A stretch of DNA of 32,000 bases from Candidatus Saccharimonadota bacterium (GCA_016432445.1 CP066689.1:1-32000); one strand, 5' to 3'. Numbered from the stretch's first letter, positions 13,317-28,812 are shown. Notes: generated by a model not told the origin, from the sequence alone. Translations and numbers: made by a program.

Positions 13317-14402
13317 TTAAGAACTCATCTCCAGCCATTTCTCAATCTCAAGTGCCGCGGCCGCTCCCATGCCTGCGGCAGTTATAGCCTGACTGTAAAT
13401 ATGATCAACACAATCACCGGCCGCAAAAACACCTTCAACCGAAGTCATTGAAGGTGAGTGGAAATTAAATTTTTTAATCCCGTCGGTATCATGGGTAAGA
13501 ACATTTTCTTTCGAAGACCTTGCCTGCCGGCAGGCAGGTCTAAGATCTAAGATCGATGATCCAATTTTTTTTGCCATCTCCTCTGCCTTTTTAGCGGCTG
13601 TCACAATATAGCCATGTTCATCAAGTACGGGCGTATTGCCATACGCCCCTACATTAAGAAAATCCGTATCCGGTTTGTGACCAATGGCAATAAATAAGCC
13701 ATCAAGCTTTAGCTCTTTTTCTCCTTCTGCAGTAACTAACCTTACCCCTTCAACCTTTTTCTCCCCTATGACATCAGCCACCACCGCATTGTAAATAATC
13801 TCAATCTTAGGATTAGCCGTGACTCTTTCCTGCATAATCTTTGAAGCTTTAAATTTATCTCTTCGGTGAATAAGATAAACTTTGGCAGCAAACTTTGTCA
13901 AGGTTAGCGCCTCCTCCATAGCCGCATCCCCGCCGCCAACAACTCCTACAGTTTTTCCTTTGAAAAAAAATCCGTCGCAGGTCGCACAGGCCGAGATACC
14001 GTATCCACGAAGTCTTGTCTCTGCTTCCAAACCCAACCACATGGCTCTGGCGCCGGTAGCAATTAATATTGATTTGGCTAAGATCTTAGATCTAAGATCT
14101 TGGATCTGAGAAGGATATATTTCAAACGGCCTTTTGGAAAAATCAACCTTAACTATATTCTCATTTACAATTCTTGTTCCTAATTTTTCCGCCTGACTTC
14201 TCATTTTCTCAACCAATTCAGGTCCTGGAATCCGTTCAAAACCCGCATAATTTTCAACATCCGAAGTAAGCATCAGCTGACCGCCTGGAGGAGAACCGGC
14301 AAACAAAAGAGGATCAAGATTGGCCCGGGCAGTATAAATAGCCGCTGAAAGTCCGGCCGGCCCCCCACCTATTATTACAACATCCTCAATTTTGTTTGTC
14401 AT
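13317..14402 (-). CDS. trxB: thioredoxin-disulfide reductase
   Basis: VVIIGGGPAGLSAAIY (FAD), CATC redox centre in ISACATCDGFFF, GGGDAAMEEA (NADPH), HRRDKFKAS, GVFAAGDCVDHIYSQAITAAGMG. The ATG at 14402 (MTNKIED) is preferred over the track TTG at 14414, which lies in the repeat. Contains two repeat-derived inserts. Confidence 0.9.
   Translation of the reverse strand: MTNKIEDVVIIGGGPAGLSAAIYTARANLDPLLFAGSPPGGQLMLTSDVENYAGFERIPGPELVEKMRSQAEKLGTRIVNENIVKVDFSKRPFEIYPSQIQDLRSKILAKSILIATGARAMWLGLEAETRLRGYGISACATCDGFFFKGKTVGVVGGGDAAMEEALTLTKFAAKVYLIHRRDKFKASKIMQERVTANPKIEIIYNAVVADVIGEKKVEGVRLVTAEGEKELKLDGLFIAIGHKPDTDFLNVGAYGNTPVLDEHGYIVTAAKKAEEMAKKIGSSILDLRPACRQARSSKENVLTHDTDGIKKFNFHSPSMTSVEGVFAAGDCVDHIYSQAITAAGMGAAAALEIEKWLEMSS
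13517..13562. repeat. 25-nt palindrome plus family C units, in-frame in trxB
   Basis: gaccttgcctgcc|ggcaggcaggtc (1-nt bulge) followed by taagatctaagatcgatga. Encodes SSILDLRPACRQARSS within a ~40-aa segment absent from E. coli TrxB. Confidence 0.8.
14079..14110. repeat. family C heptamer array in-frame in trxB
   Basis: taagatc ttagatc taagatc ttggatc tgag, which on the coding strand gives QIQDLRSKILA. Confidence 0.85.
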
Positions 14403-14406
14403 ATTT

Positions 14407-14486
14407 TGATTCAAGATTTATGATTCACGATTCATGAATAAAATATCTAATTATTTCTTGAATCATGAATCCTGAATCGTGAATCG
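14407..14486. repeat. family B heptamer hairpin array
   Basis: Left arm tgattca agattta tgattca cgattca tgaata, right arm cttgaat catgaat cctgaat cgtgaat cg. Lies between the trxB start and the upstream gene's stop. Confidence 0.85.
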
Positions 14487-14492
14487 ATTGTA

Positions 14493-14720
14493 TTATAAAT
14501 TAATTGCTCTTTCAATCATCTTCATTATTTTTTTACTGCTTTTTTCGGGAAGGTGGGCAGAGATATCATTAATGACAATTTCTTTGGAGAGTCCGTCTAT
14601 GGCTTTTTTAACTGCCGAGACTTGCTGAAGAATATCTGATACTTCTCTTTTGCTTTGAGTCATCTTCTGAATTCCCTTAAGCTGACCAATAATCCTATTT
14701 ATTCTTTGAGTCAAGTCCAT
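14493..14720 (-). CDS. CsoR/RcnR/FrmR-family (DUF156) transcriptional repressor, Cys-less variant
   Basis: MDLTQRINRIIGQLKGIQKM...DILQQVSAVKKAIDGL...HL fits the family helix pattern. The start at 14720 is preferred: TATAAT (14733-14728 on the minus strand) lies 7 nt upstream, and the track start at 14762 lies inside the family A repeat. Confidence 0.7.
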   Translation of the reverse strand: MDLTQRINRIIGQLKGIQKMTQSKREVSDILQQVSAVKKAIDGLSKEIVINDISAHLPEKSSKKIMKMIERAINL

Positions 14721-14740
14721 GAAAACCATTATATAACAAT

Positions 14741-14808
14741 AAATCCAAAATCTAAATTTCAAATGTCAAATGATTTTTTTGAAATTTGACATTTGGATTT
14801 TTACATTT
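14741..14808. repeat. family A heptamer hairpin array, likely rho terminator
   Basis: aaatccaaaatctaaatttcaaatgtcaaatg attttttt gaaatttgacatttggattttt. The core aatgtcaaat/atttgacatt is a perfect 10-bp stem. Confidence 0.8.
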
Positions 14809-14819
14809 GTTATTTGGAG

Positions 14820-16100
14820 TTAAGTCTTGAGGGTATCTAAAAAATCCTTATTAGTTTTAGTTTTCCCCAGCTTATCAATAAGAGCTGTTAATCTTTCTTC
14901 AGAGTTTAAAAGCCCAAGCATTCGGTGTAAGGTATTAATCTTTTTTTGTATGTCCTTATCAAATAAAAGCTCTTCATGGCGAGTGCCTGACTTTTCAACA
15001 TCAATGGCCGGAAAAATCCGCCTGTCGGCAAACTTTCGGTCAAGGTGTACTTCCATATTTCCAGTACCTTTAAACTCTTCATAAATAAGATCATCCATTC
15101 GTGATTCTGTGCCAACCAAAGCTGTCCCAATGATTGTCAAACTTCCACCTTCTTCACAATTTCGGGCCGCGCCCAAAAATTTTTTAGCGGGAAATAAAGC
15201 TGAAGGATCAAACCCTCCGCTTAAGGTTCTTCCTGATCCTGTCACTGACAAGTTAAAAGCTCGGGCCAAACGGGTGACTGAATCAAGAAGAACAATCACA
15301 TCATGGCCGAATTCAACTAGTCTTTTTGCCCGCTCTAAAGCCAGGTTAGCTACCTTAACCTGCTGACGGGGAGACTCATCAAAATTGGAAGCGGCTGTTT
15401 CACCCTTAATGAATCTTTTAATTTCTGTTACTTCTTCAGGCCGCTCACCAATTAAAATAGCCATTAATTTTGCCTCTGGATAATTTTGGGTAATACCCGA
15501 AGCCATTTCTTTTAAGAAGGTTGTTTTACCGGCTTTTGGCTGAGAAACAATAAGAGCTCTTTGACCAAAACCAACCGGAGCCACCAAATCAATTATTCTT
15601 GTTGATAAAATGTCTTGTTCAGTCTCAAGTTTGATTTGTTTGTTGGGATGAAGAGAGGTAAGCTGATCGAAGTTTTTTCTTTTGCGGCTTTCCTCCTCAG
15701 TCATTTCAACACCATTAATCTTTTTGATTAAAAGCAGACTATGAAAACGCTCTCCTTCTTTTGGAGGTCTAGCTAAACCTTCAACTTCATCCCCCCGTCT
15801 TAACCAAAATCTTCTAATTTGGGACGTTGAAACATAAATATCGCGGTCTGGGTTGATAACATAATCTTGACGCAGGAAACCATAACCTCCAAAAGTGATA
15901 TCAAGTATTCCTTTAGCCTGATAACTCATCTTTAAATCCTCTTTTAGCCTATCGTCAAAAGAGGAACTTTGTCCACCATCACTTGGGCTTAGAGAAAGTT
16001 CTTTTTTATCAACAGCTATAATTGGCTTTTCTTCATATTTATCTAATACTGAATCCACATCAAAGGACTCGTCATTAACATTTTTTTTAGTAGGTGACAT
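14820..16100 (-). CDS. rho: transcription termination factor Rho
   Basis: RNA-binding domain (GILDITFGGYGFLR, IYVSTSQIRRFWLRRGDEV), Walker A (SQPKAGKTTFL), LIGERPEEV, VLLDSVTRLARA, GSLTIIGTALV, EFKGTGNMEVHLDR. The ATG at 16100 (MSPTKK) is preferred because the track start at 16151 is repeat-encoded. Confidence 0.93.
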   Translation of the reverse strand: MSPTKKNVNDESFDVDSVLDKYEEKPIIAVDKKELSLSPSDGGQSSSFDDRLKEDLKMSYQAKGILDITFGGYGFLRQDYVINPDRDIYVSTSQIRRFWLRRGDEVEGLARPPKEGERFHSLLLIKKINGVEMTEEESRKRKNFDQLTSLHPNKQIKLETEQDILSTRIIDLVAPVGFGQRALIVSQPKAGKTTFLKEMASGITQNYPEAKLMAILIGERPEEVTEIKRFIKGETAASNFDESPRQQVKVANLALERAKRLVEFGHDVIVLLDSVTRLARAFNLSVTGSGRTLSGGFDPSALFPAKKFLGAARNCEEGGSLTIIGTALVGTESRMDDLIYEEFKGTGNMEVHLDRKFADRRIFPAIDVEKSGTRHEELLFDKDIQKKINTLHRMLGLLNSEERLTALIDKLGKTKTNKDFLDTLKT

Positions 16101-16136
16101 ATTATTTAAAATTTTTAATACGTAAATTACAAGAAA

Positions 16137-16223
16137 AAATCCAAATGTCAAAATCCAAATATCAAATTAATCCAAAATCCAAAACCTTTATCATTTGACA
16201 TTTGAGCTTTGTCATTTGGATTT
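16137..16223. repeat. family A heptamer hairpin array
   Basis: aaatccaaatgtcaaaatccaaatatcaaat ... tcatttgacatttgagctttgtcatttggattt. Confidence 0.8.
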
Positions 16224-16225
16224 AA

Positions 16226-16543
16226 TTTAAATGAATAATAGATATTAAGGATAAGCTTTGCGTGATCTTATGCTTTTGGATGTGTTTTAAGTTAAAGGAT
16301 TAAAGAGAAGATCCTCCAAGACGGGGCAAAATGAAACTTTTTCCCTAACTTAAACGGGTAGATGTGACCCGTATGCTTAATGCATCGGAGTACAACATCT
16401 CATTTCCACGTTCCGACTACGCCGAGAACGGGATTACCCTTAGGGGTGAATCGTATAAAGAAAAAGTTTTCAATTTACTTCCTCATTAGGAGGATCACCT
16501 CTATTTTACTAAAGCCTATTTCACTTTGTCAAGCGACAATTGG
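16226..16543. other. repeat-free, relatively GC-richer non-coding stretch: candidate structured RNA or long rho leader
   Basis: No credible ORF. Local hairpins include acgggt-agatgtg-acccgt (about 16354-16372). An 8-bp long-range complement joins gatcctcc (16310-16317) and ggaggatc (16489-16496). No match that I can see to the RNase P, tmRNA or SRP cores. Confidence 0.25.
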
Positions 16544-16613: not shown

Positions 16614-16621
16614 AATTAGTA

Positions 16622-16627: not shown

Positions 16628-16633
16628 TTACTT

Positions 16634-16873
16634 ATGATGACTCGTAAACTTCCTTATCTTTTTTTATTCTCATTAATTGTTATTTTAACTTTTATCTTAG
16701 GTGTAAAATACGGTAAAAAAGTCGAACAAGCCAATAAAATTAATTCTTATCTTTTAAAAATCACCCCCTCTGCCTCGCCGAAGCCTAGCGAAGGCGGGTC
16801 AATCTCCCTAGCTCCTACAAAAGTCAGCACTCCCTCCGCCACCGTGAGTCCAAAACCAACAAAAACCCAATAA
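16634..16873 (+). CDS. small membrane-anchored Pro/Ser/Thr-rich protein (hypothetical)
   Basis: 79-aa ORF with an N-terminal TM segment (LPYLFLFSLIVILTFILGV). Contains a 30-nt GC-rich element (16771-16800) shared with thyA. The TATAAT-N6-ATG context supports expression. Confidence 0.5.
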   Translation: MMTRKLPYLFLFSLIVILTFILGVKYGKKVEQANKINSYLLKITPSASPKPSEGGSISLAPTKVSTPSATVSPKPTKTQ

Positions 16874-16921: not shown

Positions 16922-16935
16922 TGAAACGGATGAAT

Positions 16936-16941
16936 TATAAT
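16936..16941 (+). promoter_or_regulatory. -10 box (TATAAT) 6 nt upstream of the fmt ATG
   Basis: tataat tactct ATG(16948). Confidence 0.4.
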
Positions 16942-16947
16942 TACTCT

Positions 16948-17961
16948 ATGAAGAAACTGAAAATTGCTTATTTTGGAACGCCTTATTTCTCAGCTGATTT
17001 TCTTGAAAAAATTTTAACTGACAATGAACTGCCAGTTGAAGTTAAGTTTATCATCACTCAGCCTGACCAACCCGCTGGTAGAAAACAAACTCTTACCCCT
17101 ACACCTGTTAAAGAAATGGCAAAAAAATATGGAATTGATGTTTATGGGCATTTGGCAGGTGGCGCGAATTTAGGGATCCCATCAGCGCGCAGGTTTAAAC
17201 GAGCACTGATGGGAAAAAATGAGCGACAGAATCTGCCAAATGCATTGAAAAATATTGACATCGCTCTCCTTTACGCTTACGGAAAAATCATTCCCTCCAA
17301 TCTTCTAACTATTCCTAAACTGGGATTTTGGAACATCCATCCCTCGCTTTTGCCTAAATATCGCGGCCCTTCGCCCATGGCTACCCCTTTAATTTTAGGA
17401 GATAAAGAAACAGGAGTTACCTTAATCAAGATGGATGAACAAATGGATCATGGACCAATTATCGCTCAGGAAAAGTATGAGATAAAACCTGATGACAGGC
17501 GCCCGGATCTGGAAAAAAAATTAACAGATTTGGGATATGAAATATTTAAAAAAACAATCATTAATTGTAGGCACAGGTCGCGACCTGTCCCTACCCGCGA
17601 ACAAGACCACATCCACGCCACCTACACTCACCTTCTTAACAAAAACGATGGCTTCATTCCTTTTGAAATTCTAAACTCGATCATCAATAATCGATCTTCG
17701 AAAGTCGAAAGTCGAATATCTAAAATCAAAGATCAAAGATCTAAGATCTACAACCTTTTCCGCGGTCTCTATCCCTGGCCAGGCATCTGGACAAAAGTCA
17801 ATATTAACGGCCAGGAAAAACGGTTAAAGATTACAGACATGGAATGTAGGGACAACCCTAGGGTTGTCCCTAGTTGTGAATTAATCATCAAAAAAGTCCA
17901 ACTCGAAGACAAAAAAGAAGTCGATTTTAAAATCTTCCAAAAAGCCTATTTATTGTTTTAA
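16948..17961 (+). CDS. fmt: methionyl-tRNA formyltransferase
   Basis: MKKLKIAYFGTPYFS..., ITQPDQPAGRK, FWNIHPSLLPKYRGPSPM, TGVTLIKMDEQMDHGPII. The ATG at 16948 is preferred over the track start at 16930. Four repeat-derived in-frame inserts. Confidence 0.85.
   Translation: MKKLKIAYFGTPYFSADFLEKILTDNELPVEVKFIITQPDQPAGRKQTLTPTPVKEMAKKYGIDVYGHLAGGANLGIPSARRFKRALMGKNERQNLPNALKNIDIALLYAYGKIIPSNLLTIPKLGFWNIHPSLLPKYRGPSPMATPLILGDKETGVTLIKMDEQMDHGPIIAQEKYEIKPDDRRPDLEKKLTDLGYEIFKKTIINCRHRSRPVPTREQDHIHATYTHLLNKNDGFIPFEILNSIINNRSSKVESRISKIKDQRSKIYNLFRGLYPWPGIWTKVNINGQEKRLKITDMECRDNPRVVPSCELIIKKVQLEDKKEVDFKIFQKAYLLF
17148..17243 (+). repeat. 96-nt hairpin element, copy 1 (in-frame in fmt, 32 codons)
   Basis: The termini gcatttggcag ... 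ctgccaaatgc form a perfect 11-bp inverted repeat, with an inner stem cccatcag/ctgatggg. 86 of 96 positions are identical to 25722..25817. Encodes HLAGGANLGIPSARRFKRALMGKNERQNLPNA. Confidence 0.9.
17567..17594. repeat. 28-nt near-perfect palindrome in-frame in fmt
   Basis: gtaggcacaggtcg|cgacctgtccctac, with 13 of 14 positions pairing. Encodes CRHRSRPVPT. Confidence 0.85.
17677..17751 (+). repeat. family D/C heptamer array (10-11 units) in-frame in fmt
   Basis: tcgatca tcaataa tcgatct tcgaaag tcgaaag tcgaata tctaaaa tcaaaga tcaaaga tctaaga tctac, encoding SIINNRSSKVESRISKIKDQRSKIY. Confidence 0.9.
17847..17872. repeat. 26-nt perfect palindrome in-frame in fmt
   Basis: tagggacaaccctagggttgtcccta is its own reverse complement. 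Its arms are shared with 17567..17594. Encodes CRDNPRVVPS. Confidence 0.9.
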
Positions 17962-19227
17962 CAATTCTTCATAATTATACATCGCAGTTGTTCTTCCTGA
18001 TCTCACTACCCCTACAAAAATATCTCTTGGTTTTCCATCTTTTTTCTGTCTATACCAGGCTTTAAACCACTCTTCATCCATAGCGGCATCAGCTAATTCT
18101 TTCGCTAGATAAAAAAGATTGCTTTCAAATACCACTACTGATGTTTGATCAAAGGCTTCTCCTGGTTTGGCTTTTAATCCTTCAATAATAGGATACTGAA
18201 GTTGTGACAAAACAGTTTCTAGATCTTCTTGAGTCCTCGTTATATAAACTCCTCCATTAATGTTTCTCTCTTTATGATAAGGAGCAAAAATACTAAAAGC
18301 CTTATTCATTCCTCCCATTAAATTGGGATATCTTAATCTGGCGCCAATAATTGAGTCTCTTACCACCACAAAGCAGGGTCTTTGAGTTCCCATTTTTTCT
18401 CTGAAAGTAGGATCTTCTTTTAATTTTCTTTTAACTTTATTTTGATTATCGATAAGAGCGGGACGAAATATCTCTGGTATTTCTTCTAGCTTTAAGCTTT
18501 GAGGGTAACCATCCGGATACATTAACTTAGTATCTCTAATATCATGAAGAGGCACAGATGTATAAGCTCCTTTGCCCCCAGCCCAGACATAACCCATGGG
18601 GATGATAAGTCCGGTTCGGTGATCTACTGTCCCAACAAGAATATGTTTATCAGGAGCGTATTTGGCTATTAATTTTGCTCTTTCCCAAGGCTGCAAAAAA
18701 ACATCCGAACTAATAACATTACTATCTACGTATTTCATAATTGGTAAATCTCTTTCTTCTTCAGATACTGATCCATGAGACAGATGTTTTTTGACAGTCC
18801 TGCCTCCACAACCTTCAGGACTTTCATCAGGAGTTAAGGCTTGGCTATCAAAATGAGAAAGAACAAATATTTGCCCTACTCCTTCATGGTTTAAAACATA
18901 AGCAGTCCTTTCAATTGGAGCTGAGCCGGCCACTGAGTTTAAACTGGCAACTTGTGGCCCCATAGTATCAAACAATGGTTCAGCTGCGCTTCGTGCATCA
19001 CTGCAAACATCAACTACAATTCTTGCATGCAATGATTTTGCTTCCAAAGCTCTACGAATATTATTTTGTGCTTCGGGAGATTGATTATCTTTTAAGAATA
19101 AATCAGCGGTAAAAGGAAGCTCTTTGAATTTACTTCTCTCAGGCTCAGGTAAAGATTTTTCCATATAATGATAACGATAGGAAGCTCCAATTCTACCAAA
19201 ATAAGTATTTTTTTCAACGTAAGACAC
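17950..19227 (-). CDS. uncharacterised protein with a beta-carbonic-anhydrase-like CxDxR / H...GCG motif set
   Basis: 425-aa ORF with a GTG start at 19227. Motifs VDVCSDARSAAEPLFD, IFVLSHFDSQALTPDESPEGCGG and ILVGTVDHRTGLII. Its 3' end overlaps fmt convergently by 12 nt. The function call is tentative. Confidence 0.7.
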   Translation of the reverse strand: MSYVEKNTYFGRIGASYRYHYMEKSLPEPERSKFKELPFTADLFLKDNQSPEAQNNIRRALEAKSLHARIVVDVCSDARSAAEPLFDTMGPQVASLNSVAGSAPIERTAYVLNHEGVGQIFVLSHFDSQALTPDESPEGCGGRTVKKHLSHGSVSEEERDLPIMKYVDSNVISSDVFLQPWERAKLIAKYAPDKHILVGTVDHRTGLIIPMGYVWAGGKGAYTSVPLHDIRDTKLMYPDGYPQSLKLEEIPEIFRPALIDNQNKVKRKLKEDPTFREKMGTQRPCFVVVRDSIIGARLRYPNLMGGMNKAFSIFAPYHKERNINGGVYITRTQEDLETVLSQLQYPIIEGLKAKPGEAFDQTSVVVFESNLFYLAKELADAAMDEEWFKAWYRQKKDGKPRDIFVGVVRSGRTTAMYNYEELLKQ

Positions 19228-19280
19228 CGCGGGAGTGTACTAGAGTATCTTGACAATCTAAGATAAAACTCGATCAATTA

Positions 19281-20033
19281 CTACAGCCTAAAAAGGCTGC
19301 CGATAAAGTAGGCGACAATGGCCGCCACTCCCCCAAGCAATATAGTCTCCCCCACCGACCTTAACCAGCTTTCTGTTGACAATCTCCATCTCAAAACGCC
19401 AAGAATAATCAATGCTAAAAAAGTGGAAATAGCAGAAAACATAAAAATATTTGGATCATTTCTGAAAAATAAATAAGGAATTAAAGGAATTAAACCAAAG
19501 ACGATAAAAGAGGTAAAAGTAGCTAGAGCCATAAAAACAGGTTTGTCGCGCCCTGGATCTGCCATCTCAAGCTCCTGGCTCATCATAAAATTTAGCCAGT
19601 ATTTTTCGTTAGTCGCATATATACTAACCAATTTTTCAGCCTGAGCTTTTGAAAAACCTTTTTGCATTAATATCTCAATGCTTTCTGCTTTTTCAGCTTC
19701 AGGATTATTGCGGATTTCATAACGTTCTTTTTTTTCTTCGGAAAAGTAGACATTCTGATGTGATCTAGTTGATAAAAAATTACCTAAAGCCATTGAGACA
19801 CCATCAGCAAATAAGTTGGCCAACCCAAAAAGAAGTACCAACAATAGTGAAATCTTTTCAAAATTCTGAGTCTGGGCGCCGGCAAAACCGGCAACAACAG
19901 CAAATGTCGTTACGATCCCATCATTGCCTCCATAAACAATCTCTCTTAAATAAATTGACAAAGGAGATAACCTGTGCTCTAATGCCAAATGTTTTTTTAG
20001 GTCAAAACCGGTATGCTGCTTTTTTAATTTCAT
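19281..20033 (-). CDS. VIT1/CCC1-family (iron/manganese transporter-like) membrane protein
   Basis: REIVYGGNDGIVTTFAVVAGFAGA is followed by TM helices and a C-terminal TM bundle. The ATG at 20033 (MKLKKQ) is preferred because the track start at 20048 is in the repeat. Confidence 0.7.
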   Translation of the reverse strand: MKLKKQHTGFDLKKHLALEHRLSPLSIYLREIVYGGNDGIVTTFAVVAGFAGAQTQNFEKISLLLVLLFGLANLFADGVSMALGNFLSTRSHQNVYFSEEKKERYEIRNNPEAEKAESIEILMQKGFSKAQAEKLVSIYATNEKYWLNFMMSQELEMADPGRDKPVFMALATFTSFIVFGLIPLIPYLFFRNDPNIFMFSAISTFLALIILGVLRWRLSTESWLRSVGETILLGGVAAIVAYFIGSLFRL

Positions 20034-20039
20034 AAACTT

Positions 20040-20106
20040 CAAATTCAAATGTCAAAGCTCAAATTTTGGATTTGTTTTGACATTTGTCATTTGAAATTTG
20101 GATTTA
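20040..20106. repeat. family A heptamer hairpin array
   Basis: caaattcaaatgtcaaagctcaaat ... ttgttttgacatttgtcatttgaaatttggattt, between the tgt stop and the VIT-like start. Confidence 0.8.
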
Positions 20107-21222
20107 AATCTCATTTCTCCTAATTGACTCCCTAACACTCTCCATAAATCTCTTCATTACCCATAAATTATGGTAAGTTGCTAAAGTATAACCCAAAAGT
20201 TCTTTCTGTTTAAACAGATGATAAAGATAAGCTTTAGTAAAGTTTTGGCAAACATAACACTCACAGTTCTCATCCACCCTTTCTAAATTATCTTTATATA
20301 TAGTCTTATTAATATCAATCTTCTCCCATCTTTGAAATTTGAAATTTGAAATTTGGATTTGATAGATAGTCCCCATTCTCGCCAGTCTGGTGGGTTCAAC
20401 ACAGTCAAAAGTATCAATACCATAGCCCACCAAATCTAAAATGTCATCAGCATGCCCCACTCCCAAAAGATGCACGGGTTTATCTTCAGGCAAATACTCT
20501 GAAACCCAGGAAACCTGCTGTCTCATCTCCTCTTTTGTCTCCCCCACTGACACACCACCTATTGCCACACCATCAGTGTTTTGAGAAACAACAAATTTAG
20601 CTGACTCCTTTCTCAAATTCTCATATTTCCCTCCCTGAATGATCCCATAAAGGAATTGAAATTTTTGATTTTTGATATTCGATATTCGAAAATCGATTGT
20701 CGAAGATCGAATGCACCTTTTTAGCCATTCATGCGTTCTCTCCATTGACTTTTTTGCATAAACGTGATCAGCTCCGCAGTCTAAACACTCATCAAAAGCC
20801 ATGATTAAATCCGCCCCAATCTTTTTCTGATACTCAATTGATTTTTCAGGAGTAAACTCAACCAAAGTGCCATCATAAGTTGACCTGAACTTGACTCCAT
20901 CTTCGGAAATTTTTTCCACCAATGGTTCTTCTTCCCCAAAAACCTTAGCTTTACGCTTGCCGGTAGCTAAAGAAAAAACCTGAAATCCGCCTGAATCAGA
21001 CATTAAAGGAACTTCAAGTTTAGAAAATCCATGAATGCCGCCGGCTTTTTCAATAATTTCAACTCCCGGATGAGTAACTAAATGGTAGCAGTTAACAAAA
21101 GCTACCTTAACCCCGACCTCTTTAACTTGTTTGGGAGTTAAAGACTTTAAAGTTCCTTTTGTAGCCACAGGCACAAAAGCCGGAGTTTCAATCTCACCAT
21201 GAAAAGTTGCAATTTTGCCCAA
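20104..21222 (-). CDS. tgt: tRNA-guanine transglycosylase (queuine tRNA-ribosyltransferase)
   Basis: HGEIETPAFVPVATKGTLK, MSDSGGFQVFSL, IMAFDEC, YGIIQGG, AIGGVSVGE, LLGVGH, FDCVEPTRLAR, CECYVCQNFTKAYLYHL (zinc site). The first canonical start is TTG at 21222, but homology continues upstream to about 21270 (see findings). Two heptamer inserts. Confidence 0.9.
   Translation of the reverse strand: MGKIATFHGEIETPAFVPVATKGTLKSLTPKQVKEVGVKVAFVNCYHLVTHPGVEIIEKAGGIHGFSKLEVPLMSDSGGFQVFSLATGKRKAKVFGEEEPLVEKISEDGVKFRSTYDGTLVEFTPEKSIEYQKKIGADLIMAFDECLDCGADHVYAKKSMERTHEWLKRCIRSSTIDFRISNIKNQKFQFLYGIIQGGKYENLRKESAKFVVSQNTDGVAIGGVSVGETKEEMRQQVSWVSEYLPEDKPVHLLGVGHADDILDLVGYGIDTFDCVEPTRLARMGTIYQIQISNFKFQRWEKIDINKTIYKDNLERVDENCECYVCQNFTKAYLYHLFKQKELLGYTLATYHNLWVMKRFMESVRESIRRNEI
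20331..20363. repeat. heptamer array (TTTGAAA units) in-frame in tgt
   Basis: tttgaaa tttgaaa tttgaaa tttggat ttgat, which on the coding strand gives QIQISNFKFQR. Confidence 0.85.
20655..20710. repeat. family D heptamer array (8 units) in-frame in tgt
   Basis: The coding strand tcgatcttcgacaatcgattttcgaatatcgaatatcaaaaatcaaaaatttcaat encodes RSSTIDFRISNIKNQKFQ. A 19-nt stretch is identical to the glycosyltransferase copy. Confidence 0.9.
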
Positions 21223-21269
21223 TCGCGCCCTTGATTTTCCCGATTTATGTTCTACCTGAAAAAATTTTA

Positions 21270-21821
21270 CTATTTTTCCAAATCTACAAACTTATACGTA
21301 TATTTTCCCGACTTGCCCTTTTTCTCAAAGACTTTTTTCTTAAACTCGCAGTAATCTGGGAAAAAGGTGTCAGCCTTATATTTCCCTTCAACTATGGTTA
21401 GATAAAGTTTATCTGTGTACTTCATTGCTTCATTGTAAATTTGACCCCCGCCAATTATAAAGATCTCTTTTTTATCGGGAAGCCTTTCTTTTGCAACTTT
21501 AATAGCATCCTCTAATGAATTACAAACAATAGTATGACCATGGCGAAGATATCCGTTTTGAAGTGTCGCTTGGGTTCTCCCGAAGGGTGAAGCGCACGAA
21601 AAACGAGGTATCGAGCCACTTCGAGTAACAATAATGTTTAAGCGATTTGGTAATGGCCTTCCAATAGATTCGTATGTCTTTCTCCCCATCACAACCGCAT
21701 GGCCTTTGGTTATTTTTCTGAATCTTTCCAAATCCTCAGGAATATCCCACAAAAGCTTATTATCCTTCCCTAAAGCCCTATGTTCATCAATAATGGCAAT
21801 CATGCTAATCTTTGGTTTCAT
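21270..21821 (-). CDS. folA: dihydrofolate reductase
   Basis: ISMIAIIDEHRALGKDNKLLW, VVMGRKTYESIGRPLPNRLNIIVTR, IFIIGGGQIYNE, LYLTIVEG...DTFFP. The ATG at 21821 (MKPKIS) is preferred, with TATCAT 7 nt upstream. Carries an extra segment of roughly 22 aa relative to E. coli FolA. Confidence 0.85.
   Translation of the reverse strand: MKPKISMIAIIDEHRALGKDNKLLWDIPEDLERFRKITKGHAVVMGRKTYESIGRPLPNRLNIIVTRSGSIPRFSCASPFGRTQATLQNGYLRHGHTIVCNSLEDAIKVAKERLPDKKEIFIIGGGQIYNEAMKYTDKLYLTIVEGKYKADTFFPDYCEFKKKVFEKKGKSGKYTYKFVDLEK
21554..21605. repeat. imperfect palindromic element in-frame in folA
   Basis: cgttttgaagtgtcgctt ... aagcgcacgaaaaacg, with outer stem cgtttt/aaaacg and inner stem gtg(t)cgctt/aagcgcac. 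Encodes part of PRFSCASPFGRTQATLQNG. Confidence 0.55.
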
Positions 21822-21947
21822 GTGATGAATGATATCTGAATCCGCTTTAAAAATCAAGAAAGTGGAAATTTGGGGAAAATATTATATAATATAGTTATAA
21901 AAATGGTCGACAGCAAAGGAATCTCATTTAGAAGATTGTTTTGCGGT

Positions 21948-21985
21948 AAACCAGCATGATCTTAACAAAGACTGCTGGTTTTTTT
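21948..21985 (+). terminator. intrinsic terminator-like hairpin upstream of the DUF2294 gene
   Basis: A 9-bp stem aaaccagca (21948-21956) / tgctggttt (21973-21981) with a 16-nt loop and a run of seven T. No CDS lies upstream on this strand. Confidence 0.5.
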
Positions 21986-22004
21986 AGTTTATAGACTTAA
22001 ATTT

Positions 22005-22385
22005 ATGAACCCCACAAAAACAAAAGGACAAATAGAAGATGATATCTCCAAAAAAACTACGAAGTTTTACTTTGATCATTTGGGCGTTGGCCCCAAAGAA
22101 ACCCGCGTTTATATCATTCATGACATGATTATTGTCCGCCTTAAAGGTAATCTTCTACCTATTGAAAAAAAACTTCTTGAGGCTGAAGGCGGCATAGAAC
22201 TGGTTAAAAATATAAGACAAGCTCTCCATGAGATCACCACCAAACACTTAGGCACAATTATTGAAGAAGTAACAAATCACAAAGTGATAAGTTCTCATAG
22301 CGATATAAGCACCAAAACGGGTGAAAGACTTGAGGTGTTTATACTTGACAGCGATTACGAACAACTTTTAAAAAAAACAGCTTAA
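22005..22385 (+). CDS. DUF2294 / MpsC-like family protein
   Basis: KGQIEDDISKKTTKFYFDHLGVGPKETRVYIIHDMIIVRLKGNLLPIEKKL...HSDISTKTGERLEVFILD matches the pattern I recall for this family. Confidence 0.7.
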   Translation: MNPTKTKGQIEDDISKKTTKFYFDHLGVGPKETRVYIIHDMIIVRLKGNLLPIEKKLLEAEGGIELVKNIRQALHEITTKHLGTIIEEVTNHKVISSHSDISTKTGERLEVFILDSDYEQLLKKTA

Positions 22386-22468
22386 GAAAACTGTAGAAAG
22401 GGCTCAAACTTCTTAAAAAAGGGGCCGGTTAGACAGTAATCTTCTTTAAATTTTTTCCGGACCCTATC

Positions 22469-22672
22469 ATGACCAACAAACACTGGGAGTATTTTGCGTA
22501 CAGATATCTTTATATTAATACTGTATGTATCGTCATCCTTTTGGAGCTGATCATCTTTAACAGCTATTATTTATCTGTATTTATAATAATTTTAGCATTC
22601 AGACTTCTAGCCAATTTTACTAAGTCTAAAAAGATAACCCCTCAAGCTAAAAGTATTGTTGCGAAGATTTAA
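22469..22672 (+). CDS. hypothetical small membrane protein (weak)
   Basis: 67-aa ORF with two hydrophobic segments and no motif support. Its stop overlaps the thyA stop. Confidence 0.3.
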   Translation: MTNKHWEYFAYRYLYINTVCIVILLELIIFNSYYLSVFIIILAFRLLANFTKSKKITPQAKSIVAKI

Positions 22673-23652
22673 ACTTTATTCTTACTCTTTTCATAGTATC
22701 CGCCAACAACCGAAAGTTCTCCTTTTATAGGCGGGTGGGGATTGTAATTTTCAAGTATAACGTGCTCAGGCCTGAAATCATCAATATCTTTAACTGAAGA
22801 GTCAATCTTAATTGTAGGAAAAGACCTTGGCTCTCTTTTTATCTGCTCTTTTACTTGGGTCAAATGATTTTCATAAATATGAACATCGCCAAAAGTATGA
22901 ACAAACTCTCCAGGCTCATAACCTGTAACTTTCGCAATGATAAAAGTAAGCAAAGCGTAACTGGCAATATTAAAAGGAACACCTAAGAAAACATCAGCAC
23001 TGCGCTGATAAAGCTGAAGATTCAATTTGCCTTTTTTCATATTGATTTGGTACATATTGTGACAGATTGGGAAGTAAGAAGTATCCTCAGGTTGAGCCAT
23101 GGTGTATAAATACTCAGGGTTCCATGAATTAACAATAGTATTGTGAGCATAAGGATCCTCTTTTATCTCATTGACCACCCATAATAACTGATCTATTGTT
23201 CTTGCGGGCTTGCCTCGCCGAAGCCCAGCGTAGGCGGGCCATTTTCTCCACATCTCGCCATAAATTCTAGGAAGTTCTCCATGTTTTCTAGCAAACTTAT
23301 CATCCGTCTTTATCTTTTCAATAAACTCCTCTTTATCTAAGATCTTAGATCTTAGATCTTGGATCTTAGATTTGTAAATTTTATAAGGGTAATCGTCCCA
23401 AATGTGAACATTATTATCAACTAGATATTTAATGTTAGTTTGGCCGGACATAAACCAATAAAGTTCATGTAAAACTCCTTTCCAGTAAACACGCTTTGTT
23501 GTTAAAAGAGGCAGTCCTTTAGATAAATCAAAACGGATCTGACGGCCAAAAACTCCATAGGAGTAAACATCGGCTCCCCGGTCATGGTTTTTATCACCGT
23601 TTTTCAAAATATCCTTAAGTAGATTTAGATATTGGTATTCTGGATGATCCAT
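22669..23652 (-). CDS. thyA: thymidylate synthase (ThyA)
   Basis: RFDLSKGLPLLTTKRV, HELYWFMSGQTN, IVNSWNP, catalytic Cys in FPICHNMYQ, LYQRSADVFLGVPFNIASYALL, FGDVHIYENH. The ATG at 23652 (MDHPEYQYL) is preferred. Two repeat-derived inserts. Confidence 0.92.
   Translation of the reverse strand: MDHPEYQYLNLLKDILKNGDKNHDRGADVYSYGVFGRQIRFDLSKGLPLLTTKRVYWKGVLHELYWFMSGQTNIKYLVDNNVHIWDDYPYKIYKSKIQDLRSKILDKEEFIEKIKTDDKFARKHGELPRIYGEMWRKWPAYAGLRRGKPARTIDQLLWVVNEIKEDPYAHNTIVNSWNPEYLYTMAQPEDTSYFPICHNMYQINMKKGKLNLQLYQRSADVFLGVPFNIASYALLTFIIAKVTGYEPGEFVHTFGDVHIYENHLTQVKEQIKREPRSFPTIKIDSSVKDIDDFRPEHVILENYNPHPPIKGELSVVGGYYEKSKNKV
23211..23240. repeat. 30-nt GC-rich element in-frame in thyA, second copy at 16771..16800
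   Basis: tgcctcgccgaagcccagcgtaggcgggcc versus tgcctcgccgaagcctagcgaaggcgggtc (27 of 30 identical). Read on opposite strands in the two genes: PAYAGLRRGK versus SASPKPSEGGS. Confidence 0.85.
23335..23373. repeat. family C heptamer array in-frame in thyA
   Basis: atctaag atcttag atcttag atcttgg atcttag attt, which on the coding strand gives KSKIQDLRSKILD. Confidence 0.9.
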
Positions 23653-23656
23653 AATT

Positions 23657-23743
23657 AAATCCAAAGTTCAAATGTCAAATGTCAAAACAAATCCAAAAAA
23701 AAATTATAAATTATTTGATATTTGACATTTGGATTTTGACATT
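23657..23743. repeat. family A heptamer hairpin array between dcd-like and thyA
   Basis: aaatccaaagttcaaatgtcaaatgtcaaaacaaatcc ... atttgatatttgacatttggattttgacatt. Confidence 0.8.
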
Positions 23744-25089: not shown

Positions 25090-26238
25090 ATGACCCCCGT
25101 TTACGTTTTTGATCCAACGGCTAGTGACCTTTTAAGCCGAGTCCGCGGCATCGGCCGCTATCTCCAACTCCTTAAAGAAAACTTTAGCAACGAATTCATT
25201 TTCTCAGATAAACTACCCTCAACTCACAACTCACAACCCATAACCTTCATCAACCCTTTCTTTGACCCTCTTAAAACACCCTTACTGATGAAAAGAATCG
25301 CGCAAAAACAAATTGCCGTCATCCATGACCTTATTCCCCTTAAATATCCTTTTCATTTTCCTGTTGGCATTCGGGGAAAATTGAATATATTTCTAAATAA
25401 ACTAGCTCTCAAAAATTATGATTTAATCATCACCGATTCGCAAACCAGTAAAAAAGATATCGTTAATATTTTAAAAGTGAAAAGTGAAAAGTTAAAAGTT
25501 ATCTACCCCACTCTCACTGGCATTTTTTTTGATAGTCGATCTTCGACAATCGATCTTCGAACATCAAATATCGAAAATCGAAAATCTAAGATCAAAGATC
25601 TAAGATCAAACTATCTTATTTACGTAGGGGACGCCACCTGGAATAAAAATCTGGTAAATCTTACGAAAGCAATTAAATTCGCCAATGTCACCTGCATTTT
25701 CGTCGGAAAAATATTTACAAATTATTTGACAGGTGGCGCGAATTTAGGGATCCCGTCAGCGCGCAGTTTTGGACGAGCACTGATGGGAAAAAATGAGCGA
25801 CAGAATCTGTCAAATAACCAACTCGACCATCCCTGGCAAAAAGACCTTAAAGAATTTCTAGAAATCACTCAAAACGACAAGCACTTTATTTTCCCAGGAT
25901 TTGTTAAAGATGAGGAATTAATCTCACTTTACAAAAATGCCGTTGCTAACATTCTTGTTTCCCGCGACGAAGGCTTTGGCTTCTCTTACTTTGAAGCTGC
26001 TTCCCAAGGGACCCCTTCAATTTTAAGCGATATTTCAATATTTCACGAAACTGCCGCTGATGCAGCTTTATTTGCCGATCCCAATAACCCTCAAGATATT
26101 GCCGATAAGATCAATGAACTTTTTACTAATAAGGAATTTGCCCAAAAACTGGGAAATAAGGCCAAACACCGAACTCTAAGCTTTTCTCCAAAAAAATTTA
26201 AGGAAGATTTATTGAAGATAATAAATGATAACTGGTAA
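25090..26238 (+). CDS. glycosyltransferase family 1 (GT4-type)
   Basis: The C-terminal half has the GT1 E-x7-E region (VSRDEGFGFSYFEAASQGTPSI) and LYKNAVANILVS. Carries a family E half-array, a TKAAAAG array, a D/C array and the 96-nt element, all in-frame. Confidence 0.85.
   Translation: MTPVYVFDPTASDLLSRVRGIGRYLQLLKENFSNEFIFSDKLPSTHNSQPITFINPFFDPLKTPLLMKRIAQKQIAVIHDLIPLKYPFHFPVGIRGKLNIFLNKLALKNYDLIITDSQTSKKDIVNILKVKSEKLKVIYPTLTGIFFDSRSSTIDLRTSNIENRKSKIKDLRSNYLIYVGDATWNKNLVNLTKAIKFANVTCIFVGKIFTNYLTGGANLGIPSARSFGRALMGKNERQNLSNNQLDHPWQKDLKEFLEITQNDKHFIFPGFVKDEELISLYKNAVANILVSRDEGFGFSYFEAASQGTPSILSDISIFHETAADAALFADPNNPQDIADKINELFTNKEFAQKLGNKAKHRTLSFSPKKFKEDLLKIINDNW
25218..25245 (+). repeat. 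family E half-array (C-rich arm only) in-frame in the GT gene
   Basis: ctcaactcacaactcacaacccataacc, encoding STHNSQPIT. Confidence 0.75.
25471..25498 (+). repeat. four tandem 7-nt units TKAAAAG in-frame
   Basis: ttaaaag tgaaaag tgaaaag ttaaaag, encoding LKVKSEKLKV. May be partly native sequence. Confidence 0.6.
25536..25610 (+). repeat. family D/C heptamer array (10-11 units) in-frame in the GT gene
   Basis: tcgatct tcgacaa tcgatct tcgaaca tcaaata tcgaaaa tcgaaaa tctaaga tcaaaga tctaaga tcaaa. Same unit order as the fmt array. Encodes SRSSTIDLRTSNIENRKSKIKDLRSN. Confidence 0.9.
25722..25817 (+). repeat. 96-nt hairpin element, copy 2 (in-frame in the GT gene)
   Basis: The termini ttatttgacag ... 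ctgtcaaataa form a perfect 11-bp inverted repeat. Encodes YLTGGANLGIPSARSFGRALMGKNERQNLSNN. Confidence 0.9.
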
Positions 26239-26253
26239 ACTCAAGTATTGGAA

Positions 26254-28011
26254 ATGAAAAAATTTATAATCTTTATAATTATTATAGCCGTTATAACGGT
26301 TATACATGTAAACGAAATATATGCCTCAGGAATTCAGGGTGATGCTGACGGTAATGGCGTCGTTAACAGCGTTGATTATTTTTATTATGTTGCCTCTGTT
26401 AATGGAGGTCACGTTCCAAGTTCTGTTAATCTTGATTTTAATGAAGATGGCGAGGTTGGACTTTTCGACCGTGCGATTATTATCAGCCACATCAGTAACC
26501 CAACTCCGACGCCAACATCTGCGTTAGGGAAAACAAATTTACCTCCCGGCATTTACGTTTATTACGACTGGGAAAGCCTTGATCCTGCAGTTTATCCCTG
26601 GATTAAAGGCGGAGAAATCGCAACCCGGTGGAACCTTATCGAACCTGAAGAAGGAACAATGAGCTGGACTGATCTTGAAAAATGGATTGATAATAATGCC
26701 AGAAAAAATAAAGGCATTACTCTAAAAATTACGGCTCACGACCGCGACTACAGCGGCATCCCCAACTGGATTTATGCAAGACATAATGTGCCGAAAATAA
26801 AAATCGGTGATCAAAACTGCAGTTATAATTCCAACTGTTTTTATCCCAAATGGTGGGATACTAATTTTATAAACAAATATACCAATATGATTAAACGGGT
26901 CGGAGAAAAATATAATAATGATCCCAGAATTGGAGCCATCATTGTGGCTATTGGTGAATATGGAGAAGCTTTTCCAGGCTATGGCAATCTAAGTTGGGAT
27001 ACCACACCCAAAAATCATGATCAATATTGGGAGGAAGCAGGCCTTACTCCTGATATTTGGATAAACTACAGCAAAAAAATAATTGATGCTTATGTAAAAG
27101 CTTTTCCCAATAAACTGCTTTTTCTTTTGGAGCAGGCATTTGAAGGCAAAAATAATGACGCCCTTACTGATTATGCCGCCTCTTCTGGAGTCAATATGGG
27201 ATTTGCCGGATTAACCGCTGACAATGACCACAATAGCCGGTGGTACACTCCTTTTTCTAAATATGTTGAAACTGGCACTCTTTTGGGCAGACTTGAACAA
27301 GGTTATGGCGGAAGTATAAGTCCGCGTTTAGTTTACTGGTCAGCTTTGAATGCTTTACGCAATCACGCTTATATTATCTCTTTTTATGGACAACCCAACA
27401 AAGATCAAGCAAACTCTGAAACTCTCAACTTCGCCAATAAATATGCCGGCACGAAAATAAAAGATACTCCGGGCGCCTGGATTGCTTTTAAAGGCAAGCC
27501 GGGTGATGATGTGATTTGGCAAGGTCATGAGGGAAATTATGAGTTTTGGATTAAACAGATTAACCCGGAAACAACTACCTTGCCTGTTTTTGATTGGGAT
27601 AAACCCAACCAGACTTTAAAAAATGCAGGAACAAAAGAAGGTATGTACTCAAGAAAAACTGATCTCTCAACCGGTAAGAATACTTTTTACCTTAATATTT
27701 ATGATCAATATGTTTCTGCTTTAAATAATGCCCGATTTAATACTTTAGTTATTGGTAAACAGGCAAAAATTACAGTTAAATATTTGAATAATAACAATGG
27801 CCAGATAGTAGTAAAATACGATAGTTTTTCAGGAGCAAAAACAGCCGGAATAGTAACCAAGACAAATACAAATACCTGGGAATCAGTGAGCTTTACAGTC
27901 ACTGATGCTTATTTTAATAACCGCCTGAATAATAATTCTGATATTACCATAACTGCTTCAGGCGAAAATGCCACCCTTCACATGGTTGAAGTCGAGATTG
28001 AACAGCCGTAG
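26254..28011 (+). CDS. secreted dockerin-repeat protein with a putative glycoside-hydrolase-like (TIM-barrel) domain
   Basis: Signal peptide (FIIFIIIIAVITVIHVNEIYA), dockerin/EF-hand-like repeats (DADGNGVVNSVD, DFNEDGEVGLFD) and a PTPTPT linker. This is followed by WNLIEPEEGTMSWTDLEKWID, which resembles GH5/GH42-type N-terminal strands. ATG 26254 is preferred over TTG 26248. The catalytic assignment is tentative. Confidence 0.7.
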   Translation: MKKFIIFIIIIAVITVIHVNEIYASGIQGDADGNGVVNSVDYFYYVASVNGGHVPSSVNLDFNEDGEVGLFDRAIIISHISNPTPTPTSALGKTNLPPGIYVYYDWESLDPAVYPWIKGGEIATRWNLIEPEEGTMSWTDLEKWIDNNARKNKGITLKITAHDRDYSGIPNWIYARHNVPKIKIGDQNCSYNSNCFYPKWWDTNFINKYTNMIKRVGEKYNNDPRIGAIIVAIGEYGEAFPGYGNLSWDTTPKNHDQYWEEAGLTPDIWINYSKKIIDAYVKAFPNKLLFLLEQAFEGKNNDALTDYAASSGVNMGFAGLTADNDHNSRWYTPFSKYVETGTLLGRLEQGYGGSISPRLVYWSALNALRNHAYIISFYGQPNKDQANSETLNFANKYAGTKIKDTPGAWIAFKGKPGDDVIWQGHEGNYEFWIKQINPETTTLPVFDWDKPNQTLKNAGTKEGMYSRKTDLSTGKNTFYLNIYDQYVSALNNARFNTLVIGKQAKITVKYLNNNNGQIVVKYDSFSGAKTAGIVTKTNTNTWESVSFTVTDAYFNNRLNNNSDITITASGENATLHMVEVEIEQP

Positions 28012-28812
28012 ACTATTTTCTACAGTAATTTTAGTTAATTTATCAAAATCAACTTTAATAATATCGGCTATAAATTTTCCAATCAATAATAAATTTGAAG
28101 GAGTGTTAGGATATTTTTTTTGAGTTCTTAAAGGTTCAGGCAGTAAAAATGGCGCATCAGTTTCTAAAACTAACTGATCTAAAGGAATTTTTTTAATAAA
28201 ACTTTGTTTTTCTTTTGAGTAAGTAATGTCACCGTCAACGCCAATGTAAATTTTGTGTTCCACTGCAAACTTTAAAAGCTCGCCATCAGGTTCACAGCAA
28301 TGAAAAACTGTTTTACCTTCTAACTTAGGATCCCATTTCTCCTTTAAAATTTTAAGCACATCTTCTTTAGCCTCACGGTTATGAATGATTAAACTTTTAT
28401 CATATTTTATGGCTAAATCTAACTGCTTTTTAAATAACTCTTTTTGCAGATCAATAAATTTTTCATCAACTTCATAATCCGAATACTTCGTCTTGCCGTA
28501 TGAATGCCTGTCTATTCCCACTTCGCCCACCGCCACCACCCTATCATTTTTTAATGATTGCTCTAATTCTTCTAAATTAATTTGAAATTTAAAATTTGAA
28601 ATTTGAAATTCATAGATGTGATGCGGATGTATGCCTACGGCTGCATAAACTCCTTCATGTTCGCCGGCTATCTCCACGGCTTTTCTTGAAGAAACAATGT
28701 CTGTCCCCGGGATAAGAATATAATCCACACCCGACGTTTTAGCTTGTATTAAAACTTCATCAATCTTGTTTTTGAAAGCATCAAAATTTAAATGGCAGTG
28801 AGTATCAAACAT
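27958..28812 (-). CDS. tatD: TatD-family metal-dependent DNase/hydrolase
   Basis: MFDTHCHLNF, GIHPHH, VAVGEVGIDRH, LIIHNREA, FHCC and LETDAPFL motifs. The 3' end overlaps the convergent upstream gene by 54 nt. One heptamer insert. Confidence 0.88.
   Translation of the reverse strand: MFDTHCHLNFDAFKNKIDEVLIQAKTSGVDYILIPGTDIVSSRKAVEIAGEHEGVYAAVGIHPHHIYEFQISNFKFQINLEELEQSLKNDRVVAVGEVGIDRHSYGKTKYSDYEVDEKFIDLQKELFKKQLDLAIKYDKSLIIHNREAKEDVLKILKEKWDPKLEGKTVFHCCEPDGELLKFAVEHKIYIGVDGDITYSKEKQSFIKKIPLDQLVLETDAPFLLPEPLRTQKKYPNTPSNLLLIGKFIADIIKVDFDKLTKITVENSLRLFNLDFNHVKGGIFA
28579..28611. repeat. heptamer array (AATTTGA units) in-frame in tatD
   Basis: aatttga aatttaa aatttga aatttga aattc, which on the coding strand gives EFQISNFKFQIN. 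The peptide core is the same as in tgt. Confidence 0.85.

Follow-up and report, generated by a model that had tools for sequence, protein, structure and literature searches.

Rickettsia palindromic elements (RPEs), reportedly described by Ogata et al. in 2000, are the classic in-frame selfish repeat. They are mentioned in PMC1779305 and PMC10969869. Heptameric long simple sequence repeats (LSSRs) include the cyanobacterial short tandemly repeated repetitive (STRR) sequences, (GGGANTN)n of Xanthomonas and GGGGA(C/T)T of Nostoc, and PMC4692102 (citing Mrazek 2007 and Mazel 1990) describes an over-representation of heptamer simple sequence repeats (SSRs), with heterogeneous (GGGANTN)n units and inverted pairs, in intergenic DNA of Xanthomonas, Nostoc and Calothrix. 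A heptanucleotide coding repeat is present in neuO of Escherichia coli K1 (PMC13001214), and the repeats in open reading frames (ORFs) of Borgs all have units divisible by three (PMC9879509). Here, arrays of 7-nt units are analyzed in a 32-kb window (the whole stretch of DNA studied, CP066689.1 positions 1-32000) from a metagenome-assembled genome (MAG) of Candidatus Roizmanbacteria (candidate phyla radiation (CPR)/Microgenomates), where they occur both between genes and in frame inside conserved housekeeping enzymes. Literature searches did not turn up any account of heptamer arrays in CPR or Microgenomates.

In their behaviour the arrays resemble RPEs and in their construction heptameric SSRs, but they lack defining features of RPEs, of contingency loci, of Borg amino acid tandem repeats (aaTRs) and of MITEs (miniature inverted-repeat transposable elements). 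Tolerated passenger microsatellites with slippage-driven turnover are the most likely mechanism, with a probability of roughly 70%. As for RPEs, one dispersed repeat family is found between genes and in frame within conserved housekeeping genes, at expected surface positions and with undisrupted ORFs. However, RPEs are discrete, palindromically folding elements of 100-150 bp that share a family consensus, whereas the arrays are 26-75 nt long with variable 7-nt units, show unit turnover in situ and occur in a CPR bacterium. With the heptameric SSRs, as described in PMC4692102, the arrays share the period of 7, fixed and free positions, a mostly intergenic location (here by density), about four units and inverted stem-loop pairs. 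The published repeats are G-rich and are described there as intergenic, whereas those in the window are AT-rich with palindromic cores, hairpin pairing is the rule, and about half of them lie inside genes, core enzymes included, where in-frame translation is predicted. Borg repeats and aaTRs are likewise a genome-specific, fast-evolving burst of tandem repeats in intergenic DNA and ORFs that differs between relatives and adds new surface or disordered protein segments (PMC9879509), but the unit in the window is 7 nt long, also inside genes, and so no multiple of three, and its repetition is imperfect. Palindromic amphipathic repeat coding elements (PARCELs; PMC2996958) and repetitive extragenic palindromic (REP) sequences and bacterial interspersed mosaic elements (REP/BIME; PMC3733652) are similar in being coding or extragenic repeats with dyad symmetry, and palindromic PARCEL DNA also yields related peptides from both strands; PARCELs are, however, 25-residue domains in surface proteins and REPs single 20-40-bp extragenic palindromes, not heptamer arrays in enzymes. 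Essential genes are normally cleared of tandem repeats whose units are not multiples of three, as a single slippage shifts the frame, and the persistence of such repeats in core genes is unusual.

In a self-match scan, 40 period-7 arrays were detected in the window, compared to 0.24 on average (at most 3) in 50 block shuffles. The other periods between 4 and 15 gave 0-8 arrays each, and Tandem Repeats Finder (TRF) agreed with the period-7 excess. As in LSSR/STRR-like repeats, the 7-nt units stand head to tail in at least 2-4 copies, far above chance; the units STRR1-3, GGGAATC and GGGGAYT were not found in the window, where the unit types are AGATCTN, ATCGAAN, TGATTCN, AAATTTN, GTTNTGG and GTTCGTN. 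Arrays in the scan are 2-8 units long, and the one in the GT1 glycosyltransferase gene reaches ~11 if TCGANNN units are counted. Just one or two of the seven positions vary in 29/40 arrays, often with all four bases, and five to six bases are fixed (for example TGATTCA/TGATTCA/CGATTCA/GGATTCA and AGTTCGT/AGTTCGT/CGTTCGT/GGTTCGT). The main sample consists of 32 kb of one genome and ~10 related loci.

At least 11 arrays could be identified in six conserved enzyme genes within the 32 kb (Table 1), and further arrays are present in a giant surface protein, ten of them in the C-terminal third of one giant ORF, which also holds complete hairpin elements in frame at 3597-3666, 4070-4165, 3370-3441 and 3781-3853. 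Gene identities are backed by Pfam (trxB, rho, fmt, tgt, folA, thyA, dcd, GT1 glycosyltransferase, tatD, dprA). Proteins at NCBI match the window Tgt, ThyA and TrxB with 100% identity; for ThyA and Tgt the exact proteins bear these names there, and a TrxB homologue is called 'FAD-dependent oxidoreductase'. An earlier reading of this stretch, referred to as the original prediction, had listed arrays in frame inside housekeeping enzymes and likened them to RPEs. All array segments that it listed are present, translate as it said and lie inside the intact trxB, thyA, fmt, tgt, tatD and GT1 ORFs, from whose sequence in-frame translation is predicted, and the RPE analogy holds as a description of array behaviour. 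It overlooked the two additional GT1 arrays of Table 1, and also that the heptamer arrays share these genes with other classes of repeats inserted in frame.

The conservation of orientation and frame had been regarded as special, but it follows mostly from two properties of the units. Three 7-nt units make seven codons, and since 7 and 3 have no common factor, a uniform array gives one and the same cyclic heptapeptide in each of its three frames, only phase-shifted. Because the AGATCT, TCGA and AAATTT cores are palindromic, the opposite strand gives the same peptide family. In genic arrays, the peptides reappear in the other five frames, broken up by stops; for the thyA array, KSKIQDLRSKIL is read in the coding frame, NLRSKI*DLRS*I in another sense frame and KILDLRSWILDL* in an antisense frame. 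The 'conserved frame and orientation' is thus mostly arithmetic. The sole visible selection is stop avoidance, a real but weak filter. In the AGATCT-type coding arrays (thyA, trxB, fmt, GT1, giant ORF), none of the nine phase-0 units (ATC-NNN-G) has TAA, and CAA, TTA, AAA, GAA, TAC or TCG stands in its place, whereas 11 of the 14 units at the other two phases retain TAA. The (AAATTTC)n arrays in tgt and tatD are open in the observed orientation only, their complement containing TGA. The earlier proposal that only stop-free placements persist stands as far as stop avoidance is concerned, but about three of six frames are open in intergenic arrays anyway (mean 2.95/6). A strong stop-codon filter as the explanation of the pattern was rejected on this ground.

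The Ile/Leu spacing of the peptides is heptad-like, ThyA 91-104 is predicted to be helical, and relatives hold a native segment of similar length at ThyA and at TrxB site 1. The segments could on these grounds be native heptad (coiled-coil-like) protein under protein-level selection, with the DNA period secondary. However, the period is 7 nt and not 21 nt, intergenic spacers are filled by the same units, other frames give the same peptide with stops, and relatives lack the segments or have unrelated sequences there. A protein-level heptad origin was rejected, since the 7-nt period and the copies between genes go far to refute it, and it retains very little probability.

Inserts were delimited by alignment to solved structures in the PDB and by comparison with L094, a syntenic relative from JGI (GC 44%) without arrays in 21 kb. 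In the PDB alignments, Tgt is longer by 10 and 9 aa at its two arrays, TrxB array 2 lies in a ~40-aa segment absent from all solved thioredoxin reductases, and the ThyA array falls in the variable small-domain region. Compared to L094, TrxB has 365 instead of 302 aa (+4 aa at site 1, +45 aa at site 2) and Fmt 343 instead of 306 aa, with inserts at four separate places, one of them being the heptamer array (+19 aa). ThyA gains 3 aa by the array and 7 aa by a GC-rich hairpin, FolA is longer by ~20 aa, and the Rho core has zero inserts. The trxB array 1 was found at its site in the window genome only, compared to L094 and 58 relatives, and fmt of the related locus L083 carries an unrelated insert at the site of the window array. 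At the ThyA and TrxB site 1 positions relatives read KLKGGRGKGKIETKEEF or SQSKYQAK, and there the array mostly recodes native sequence, for a net gain of 3-5 aa. The term insert is partly right for these two sites: that the segments fall in gaps or short loops of homologues agrees with the PDB alignments and L094, but not with the recoded segments.

In AlphaFold2 models of Tgt (predicted local distance difference test (pLDDT) 78.8) and ThyA (80.7), Tgt array 1 (172-188) is predicted to extend helix 153-180 and to continue as a loop with pLDDT <50, Tgt array 2 (288-298) to lengthen a beta-hairpin, and the ThyA array (98-109) to form the end of helix 91-104 and a loop. The modelled segments range in pLDDT from <50 (Tgt 178-186) to the 80s, and genic arrays are predicted to lie on surface loops or helix ends. 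The models partly bear out the suggestion of short amphipathic helices.

The sites that hold arrays are hot spots in relatives. Tgt orthologues 66-74% identical to the window Tgt are 349-471 aa long and have three hypervariable sites; P0014, P0025 and P0093 have no insert at sites 2 and 3, and the sister pairs P0003 and P0005, and P0019 and P0028, differ by ~29-aa inserts. TrxB relatives (302-425 aa) have the same two hot spots, the array-2 site being hypervariable. With arrays of different units at the same loops in related genomes, the clade offers a natural system for repeat-driven protein inflation in reduced CPR genomes (as in these Tgt and TrxB lengths), for the birth, homogenisation and tolerance of microsatellites inside coding DNA, and for de novo helical or loop segments from non-coding-type sequence. 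Heptamer repeats also create spurious 'conserved motifs' in CPR protein families. Array density is 1.25 per kb in the window and in L081 and 0.66 in L083 (RIFOXYB2_FULL_38_10), where arrays are also found inside thyA, queA, tgt and gdh. It is ~0.14 in L215, L216 and L217, 0.07 in L085, 0.05 in the Roizmanbacteria locus L002 and 0 in L094. Negative-control loci were taken from a contig search with a Tgt alignment, which was unspecific and matched mostly other phyla, and the median over 80 loci, mostly of other phyla, is 0 arrays per kb.

At one ThyA loop, five genomes have heptamer arrays with four different units, each array being largely uniform: (ATCTAAG)n in the window, a perfect (TCAAAGA)x4.7 in L216 (encoding SKIKDQRSKIK), (AAGATTA)n in L215 and L217 (encoding KIKDLR(L/I)K) and (AAAGTAN)n in L083. 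Four units at one loop indicate turnover in situ. Four of the five arrays share an AAGAT core with the native Lys-Ile codons (AAG ATA) of the array-free L094, which hints at seeding in situ. At Tgt site 3, (AAATTTC)n is present in the window and in L081 and in a decayed version in L083, and the Fmt site has the same pattern of orthologous arrays. Perfect or uniform arrays in genes with products only ~75% identical imply that local expansion and contraction is ongoing, with the frame kept. The unit type AGATCTN is not confined to the clade, because (AGATCTN)x5 occurs in at least 120 JGI metagenome contigs, of which the 80 that were kept (L095-L174) have a GC content of 37-70%. Some of these arrays are inside long ORFs, reading RSQISDL, and one lies in the inter-domain linker of DNA polymerase I (PolA) in L170, reading QISDLRSQISDLK.

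In the passenger microsatellite reading, the segments would be short (3-11 unit) heterogeneous heptanucleotide microsatellites of a family pervading this Roizmanbacteria genome, with intergenic DNA as the main habitat, where inverted array pairs would stand as hairpins. Survival in a gene would require a frame-keeping total length, the absence of stops and a permissive surface loop or helix end, after which the array would simply be translated, and the recurrent IQDLRSK, SNIENLT and QISNFKF peptides would arise without selection on frame or orientation. Turnover would proceed via slippage-type homogenisation and occasional copying between sites. The arrays are probably neutral or slightly deleterious passengers with no catalytic role, with replication slippage as the probable generator. 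Two observations weigh against this reading. A DNA-periodic array persists at the one ThyA loop across proteins 73-78% identical, which is hard to square with pure neutrality and could mean selection at the DNA, RNA or protein level. Further, the seventh base is variable throughout, with all four bases, and simple slippage with random mutation predicts otherwise. It is conceivable, though unlikely, that a DNA-level process specific to a Roizmanbacteria subclade continuously makes and homogenises 7-nt arrays, which are kept even at orthologous essential-gene sites across species; candidates would be a polymerase, or a repair activity, that slips in a 7-nt register, or a protein recognising periodic-mismatch hairpins. 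If true, the arrays would be an undescribed 'coding microsatellite' class under nucleic-acid drive or selection that shapes CPR proteomes and gives enzymes short surface heptad segments.

Arrays are also copied between sites, the fmt and GT1 arrays (family D2) being 85% identical over 72 nt. The 19-nt core TCGATCTTCGACAATCGAT reported earlier was confirmed to be identical in tgt (- strand, 20692-20710) and GT1 (+ strand, 25536-25554), with 0 occurrences expected by chance. The same genes hold dispersed palindromic elements (GC hairpins, GTAGG palindromes and, in fmt and GT1, a 92-nt element bounded by terminal inverted repeats), and whole inserts separate sister Tgt lineages. Genic arrays could accordingly be copies of a mobile RPE- or MITE-like copy-and-paste element and not products of microsatellite dynamics in situ. 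However, the arrays have no fixed length, and neither terminal inverted repeats nor target-site duplications were seen when their flanks were inspected, no systematic search for such duplications having been made. Units are largely uniform within an array, yet at one site they vary from genome to genome, perfect sub-arrays suggest that expansion is local, and no transposase was seen in the window (Pfam). A mobile origin is considered possible rather than probable, and it is not mutually exclusive with the microsatellite explanation.

Intergenic or gene-edge DNA (3.2 kb in total) holds 19 arrays and the ORFs (28.8 kb) hold 21, so that the density is ~8-fold higher between genes. In most intergenic spacers longer than ~50 nt, two inverted arrays form one long hairpin in which six paired positions and one unpaired position are repeated (-16.6 to -36.8 kcal/mol, z -2.8 to -8.4). 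These strong hairpins, the genome-wide family with its strictly conserved 5-6-base cores and free seventh base, and the persistence of the ThyA-site array in genomes of low array density would fit functional nucleic-acid elements (periodic protein-binding sites, or structure-dependent regulatory or replication signals) with incidental peptides. The GTTATGG/CCCAAAAC-type elements, three complete hairpins and one lone arm (3597-3666, 4070-4165, 13244-13311, 25220-25245), point in the same direction, as they all have one + strand orientation although their host genes lie on opposite strands. This orientation may track replication direction; the sample is too small to say. In contrast, most enzyme arrays are single-armed and fold no better than shuffles (z +1.7 to -2.6; the self-complementary thyA array has z = -3.8), hairpins are alike in tandem, divergent and convergent spacers, units differ among related genomes, and the array-free L094 has the same genes. 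For the 13 oriented hairpins, the difference in folding between sense and antisense strand ranges from -17.6 to +16 kcal/mol, with no advantage of the sense strand. A nucleic-acid function is therefore regarded as improbable. A terminator or RNA-level role of the intergenic hairpins, to which G.U pairing in favour of the sense strand had seemed to point, was rejected as unsupported, as no consistent sense-strand bias was observed and divergent spacers carry them too. Known RNA families and tRNAs were not found in the window. The GC skew of the whole window is negative.

As noted in the original prediction, gain or loss of one unit would shift the frame of the host gene, as it does in neuO. There too the 7-nt repeat is coding, three units make seven codons and the full-length product needs the frame (PMC13001214), and perfect sub-arrays are present in tgt (20331-20355) and in L216, so that one-unit slippage could toggle the host genes of the window (phase variation). 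However, neuO is a phase-variable accessory phage gene with one long perfect array (3-53 units; PMC13001214), whereas the window has many short, heterogeneous and imperfect arrays (3-8 units in trxB, thyA, tgt, fmt and tatD) in single-copy housekeeping enzymes. Across five independent Logan assemblies no difference in unit number was detected, and it is highly unlikely that the arrays are contingency loci. These assemblies are 100% identical to the window from 17206 to 23368, including the tgt arrays, and one contig has records in 13 samples, which shows that the arrays did not arise as artefacts of assembly. Logan contigs of the organism (short-read; L087-L091) do end exactly inside the thyA array (23368) and the 92-nt element (17206), which would fit a sequencing or assembly error, but the ORFs are intact with conserved sequence on either side and the same phenomenon is seen in independent published MAGs, so that an artefact has next to no probability. 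Heptamer arrays and the 92-nt element break short-read assemblies.

Table 1. Coordinates of array-bearing genes, genic arrays and intergenic arrays in the window.
Feature	Position	Strand	Remarks
trxB	13317-14414	-	Pfam
fmt	16930-17961	+	Pfam
tgt	20104-21222	-	Pfam
thyA	22669-23664	-	Pfam
GT1 glycosyltransferase	25090-26238	+	Pfam
tatD	27958-28812	-	Pfam
trxB array 1, (AGATCTN)x4.4	14078-14110	-	QIQDLRSKIL; net +4-5 aa compared to L094 and 58 relatives
trxB array 2	13536-13561 (with palindrome 13519-13561)	-	inside ~45-aa insert
thyA array, (ATCTAAG)x5.3	23335-23373	-	KSKIQDLRSKIL; TRF
fmt array, TCGAAAG/TCTAAGA units	17677-17751	+	NRSSKVESRISKIKDQRSKI; without counterpart in 3 relatives
tgt array 1	20655-20710	-	RSSTIDFRISNIKNQKF (residues 172-188)
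tgt array 2, perfect (AAATTTC)x3.6	20331-20363	-	QISNFKFQ (residues 288-298); TRF
tatD array, (AAATTTN)x4.6	28579-28611	-	QISNFKFQ; +6 aa compared to solved TatD structures
GT1 array, ~11 TC[GTA]ANNN units	25536-25610	+	RSSTIDLRTSNIENRKSKIKDLRS
GT1 additional array, (AAAAGTK)x4	25473-25501	+	
GT1 additional array, single CAACYCA arm of GTTATGG/CCCAAAAC hairpin type	25220-25245	+	family D13
Giant ORF, C-terminal part, at least 10 arrays	3215-4907	+	SNIENLTSNI-type segments
Intergenic hairpin, GTTATGA array and CCCAAAAC array	13244-13311		-36.8 kcal/mol, z = -8.4; 6-bp helices, mismatch at each seventh base
Intergenic AGATCTN hairpin, divergent spacer	29762-29845		family D6
Second AGATCTN hairpin, convergent spacer	30308-30407		30308-30345 (38 nt) 97% identical to 29762-29799
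Intergenic TGATTCA/TGAATCN hairpin	13117-13185		families D12, D17
Hairpin similar to TGATTCA/TGAATCN type	14403-14486		
Single arrays of TGATTCA/TGAATCN kind	10507-10537; 10939-10965		
Intergenic CAAATNN/ATTTGNN hairpin	4995-5090		families D7-D9
Further CAAATNN/ATTTGNN-type hairpins	14739-14818; 20038-20100; 23655-23743; 31864-31912		

Several other repeats were observed in the window. The trxB array 2 is fused to a GC palindrome at 13519-13541 (SILDLRPACRQARSS; CCTGCCTGCCGGCAGGCAGG) that encodes PACRQA. In P0269, PACRQAG is found again at this TrxB site, and P0061 has it at a Tgt hot spot, which makes the palindrome another dispersed element of the clade; the palindrome sequence CCTGCCTGCCGGCAGGCAGG is absent from the 94 loci searched. 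The 92-nt element is present at 17150-17241 (fmt) and 25724-25815 (GT1) in copies that are 93% identical, with terminal inverted repeats ATTTGGCAG...CTGCCAAAT. It folds at -45 kcal/mol (z = -6), reads GGANLGIPSARRFKRALMGKNERQNL in frame in Fmt and GT1 and is absent from four Fmt relatives. It is a discrete element, as RPEs are, and more MITE/RPE-like than the heptamer arrays.

A GC-rich hairpin repeat occurs at 23211-23246 (thyA) and 16771-16806 (intergenic), with copies 86% identical. The thyA copy encodes AGLRRGKPA, the +7 aa given above also being seen in comparison with solved structures, and relatives have ARSGQA- or VGKPA-type inserts at this site. In fmt, two GTAGG...CCTAC palindromes encode CRHRSRPVPT (17568-17595) and CRDNPRVVPSC (17847-17872). 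The arms of the latter are perfectly complementary (TAGGGACAACCC TA GGGTTGTCCCTA), and it adds 5-7 aa compared to relatives. Both are reminiscent of the GTAG-tagged REPs (PMC3733652). The folA insert of ~20 aa (21524-21611, SIPRFSCASPFGRTQATLQNGYLRHG) is absent from three relatives and has a weak RNA fold (z = -1.5).

Two giant ORFs (130-2460 and 5370-6990), for which no Pfam match was obtained, share a ~40-nt unit GGCAATGTCGGCATCGGGACNAC... in 13-15 copies with GNVGIGT-type repeats. The rho/fmt divergent spacer contains ~260 nt of non-repetitive DNA (16240-16500) without an ORF of at least 100 aa and without an Rfam or tRNA match, which could be a small gene or an undescribed RNA. Period-9 arrays GTTATAACN / TTATAACCG at 8437-8477 and 26264-26304, the latter at the start of a GH/dockerin ORF, form a separate repeat family. 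At 4428-4522 in the giant ORF, a palindromic element GTCATCCTGAAG...CTCAGAATGAC reads ...SEILRSAQNDN and folds at -39 kcal/mol (z = -3.0).

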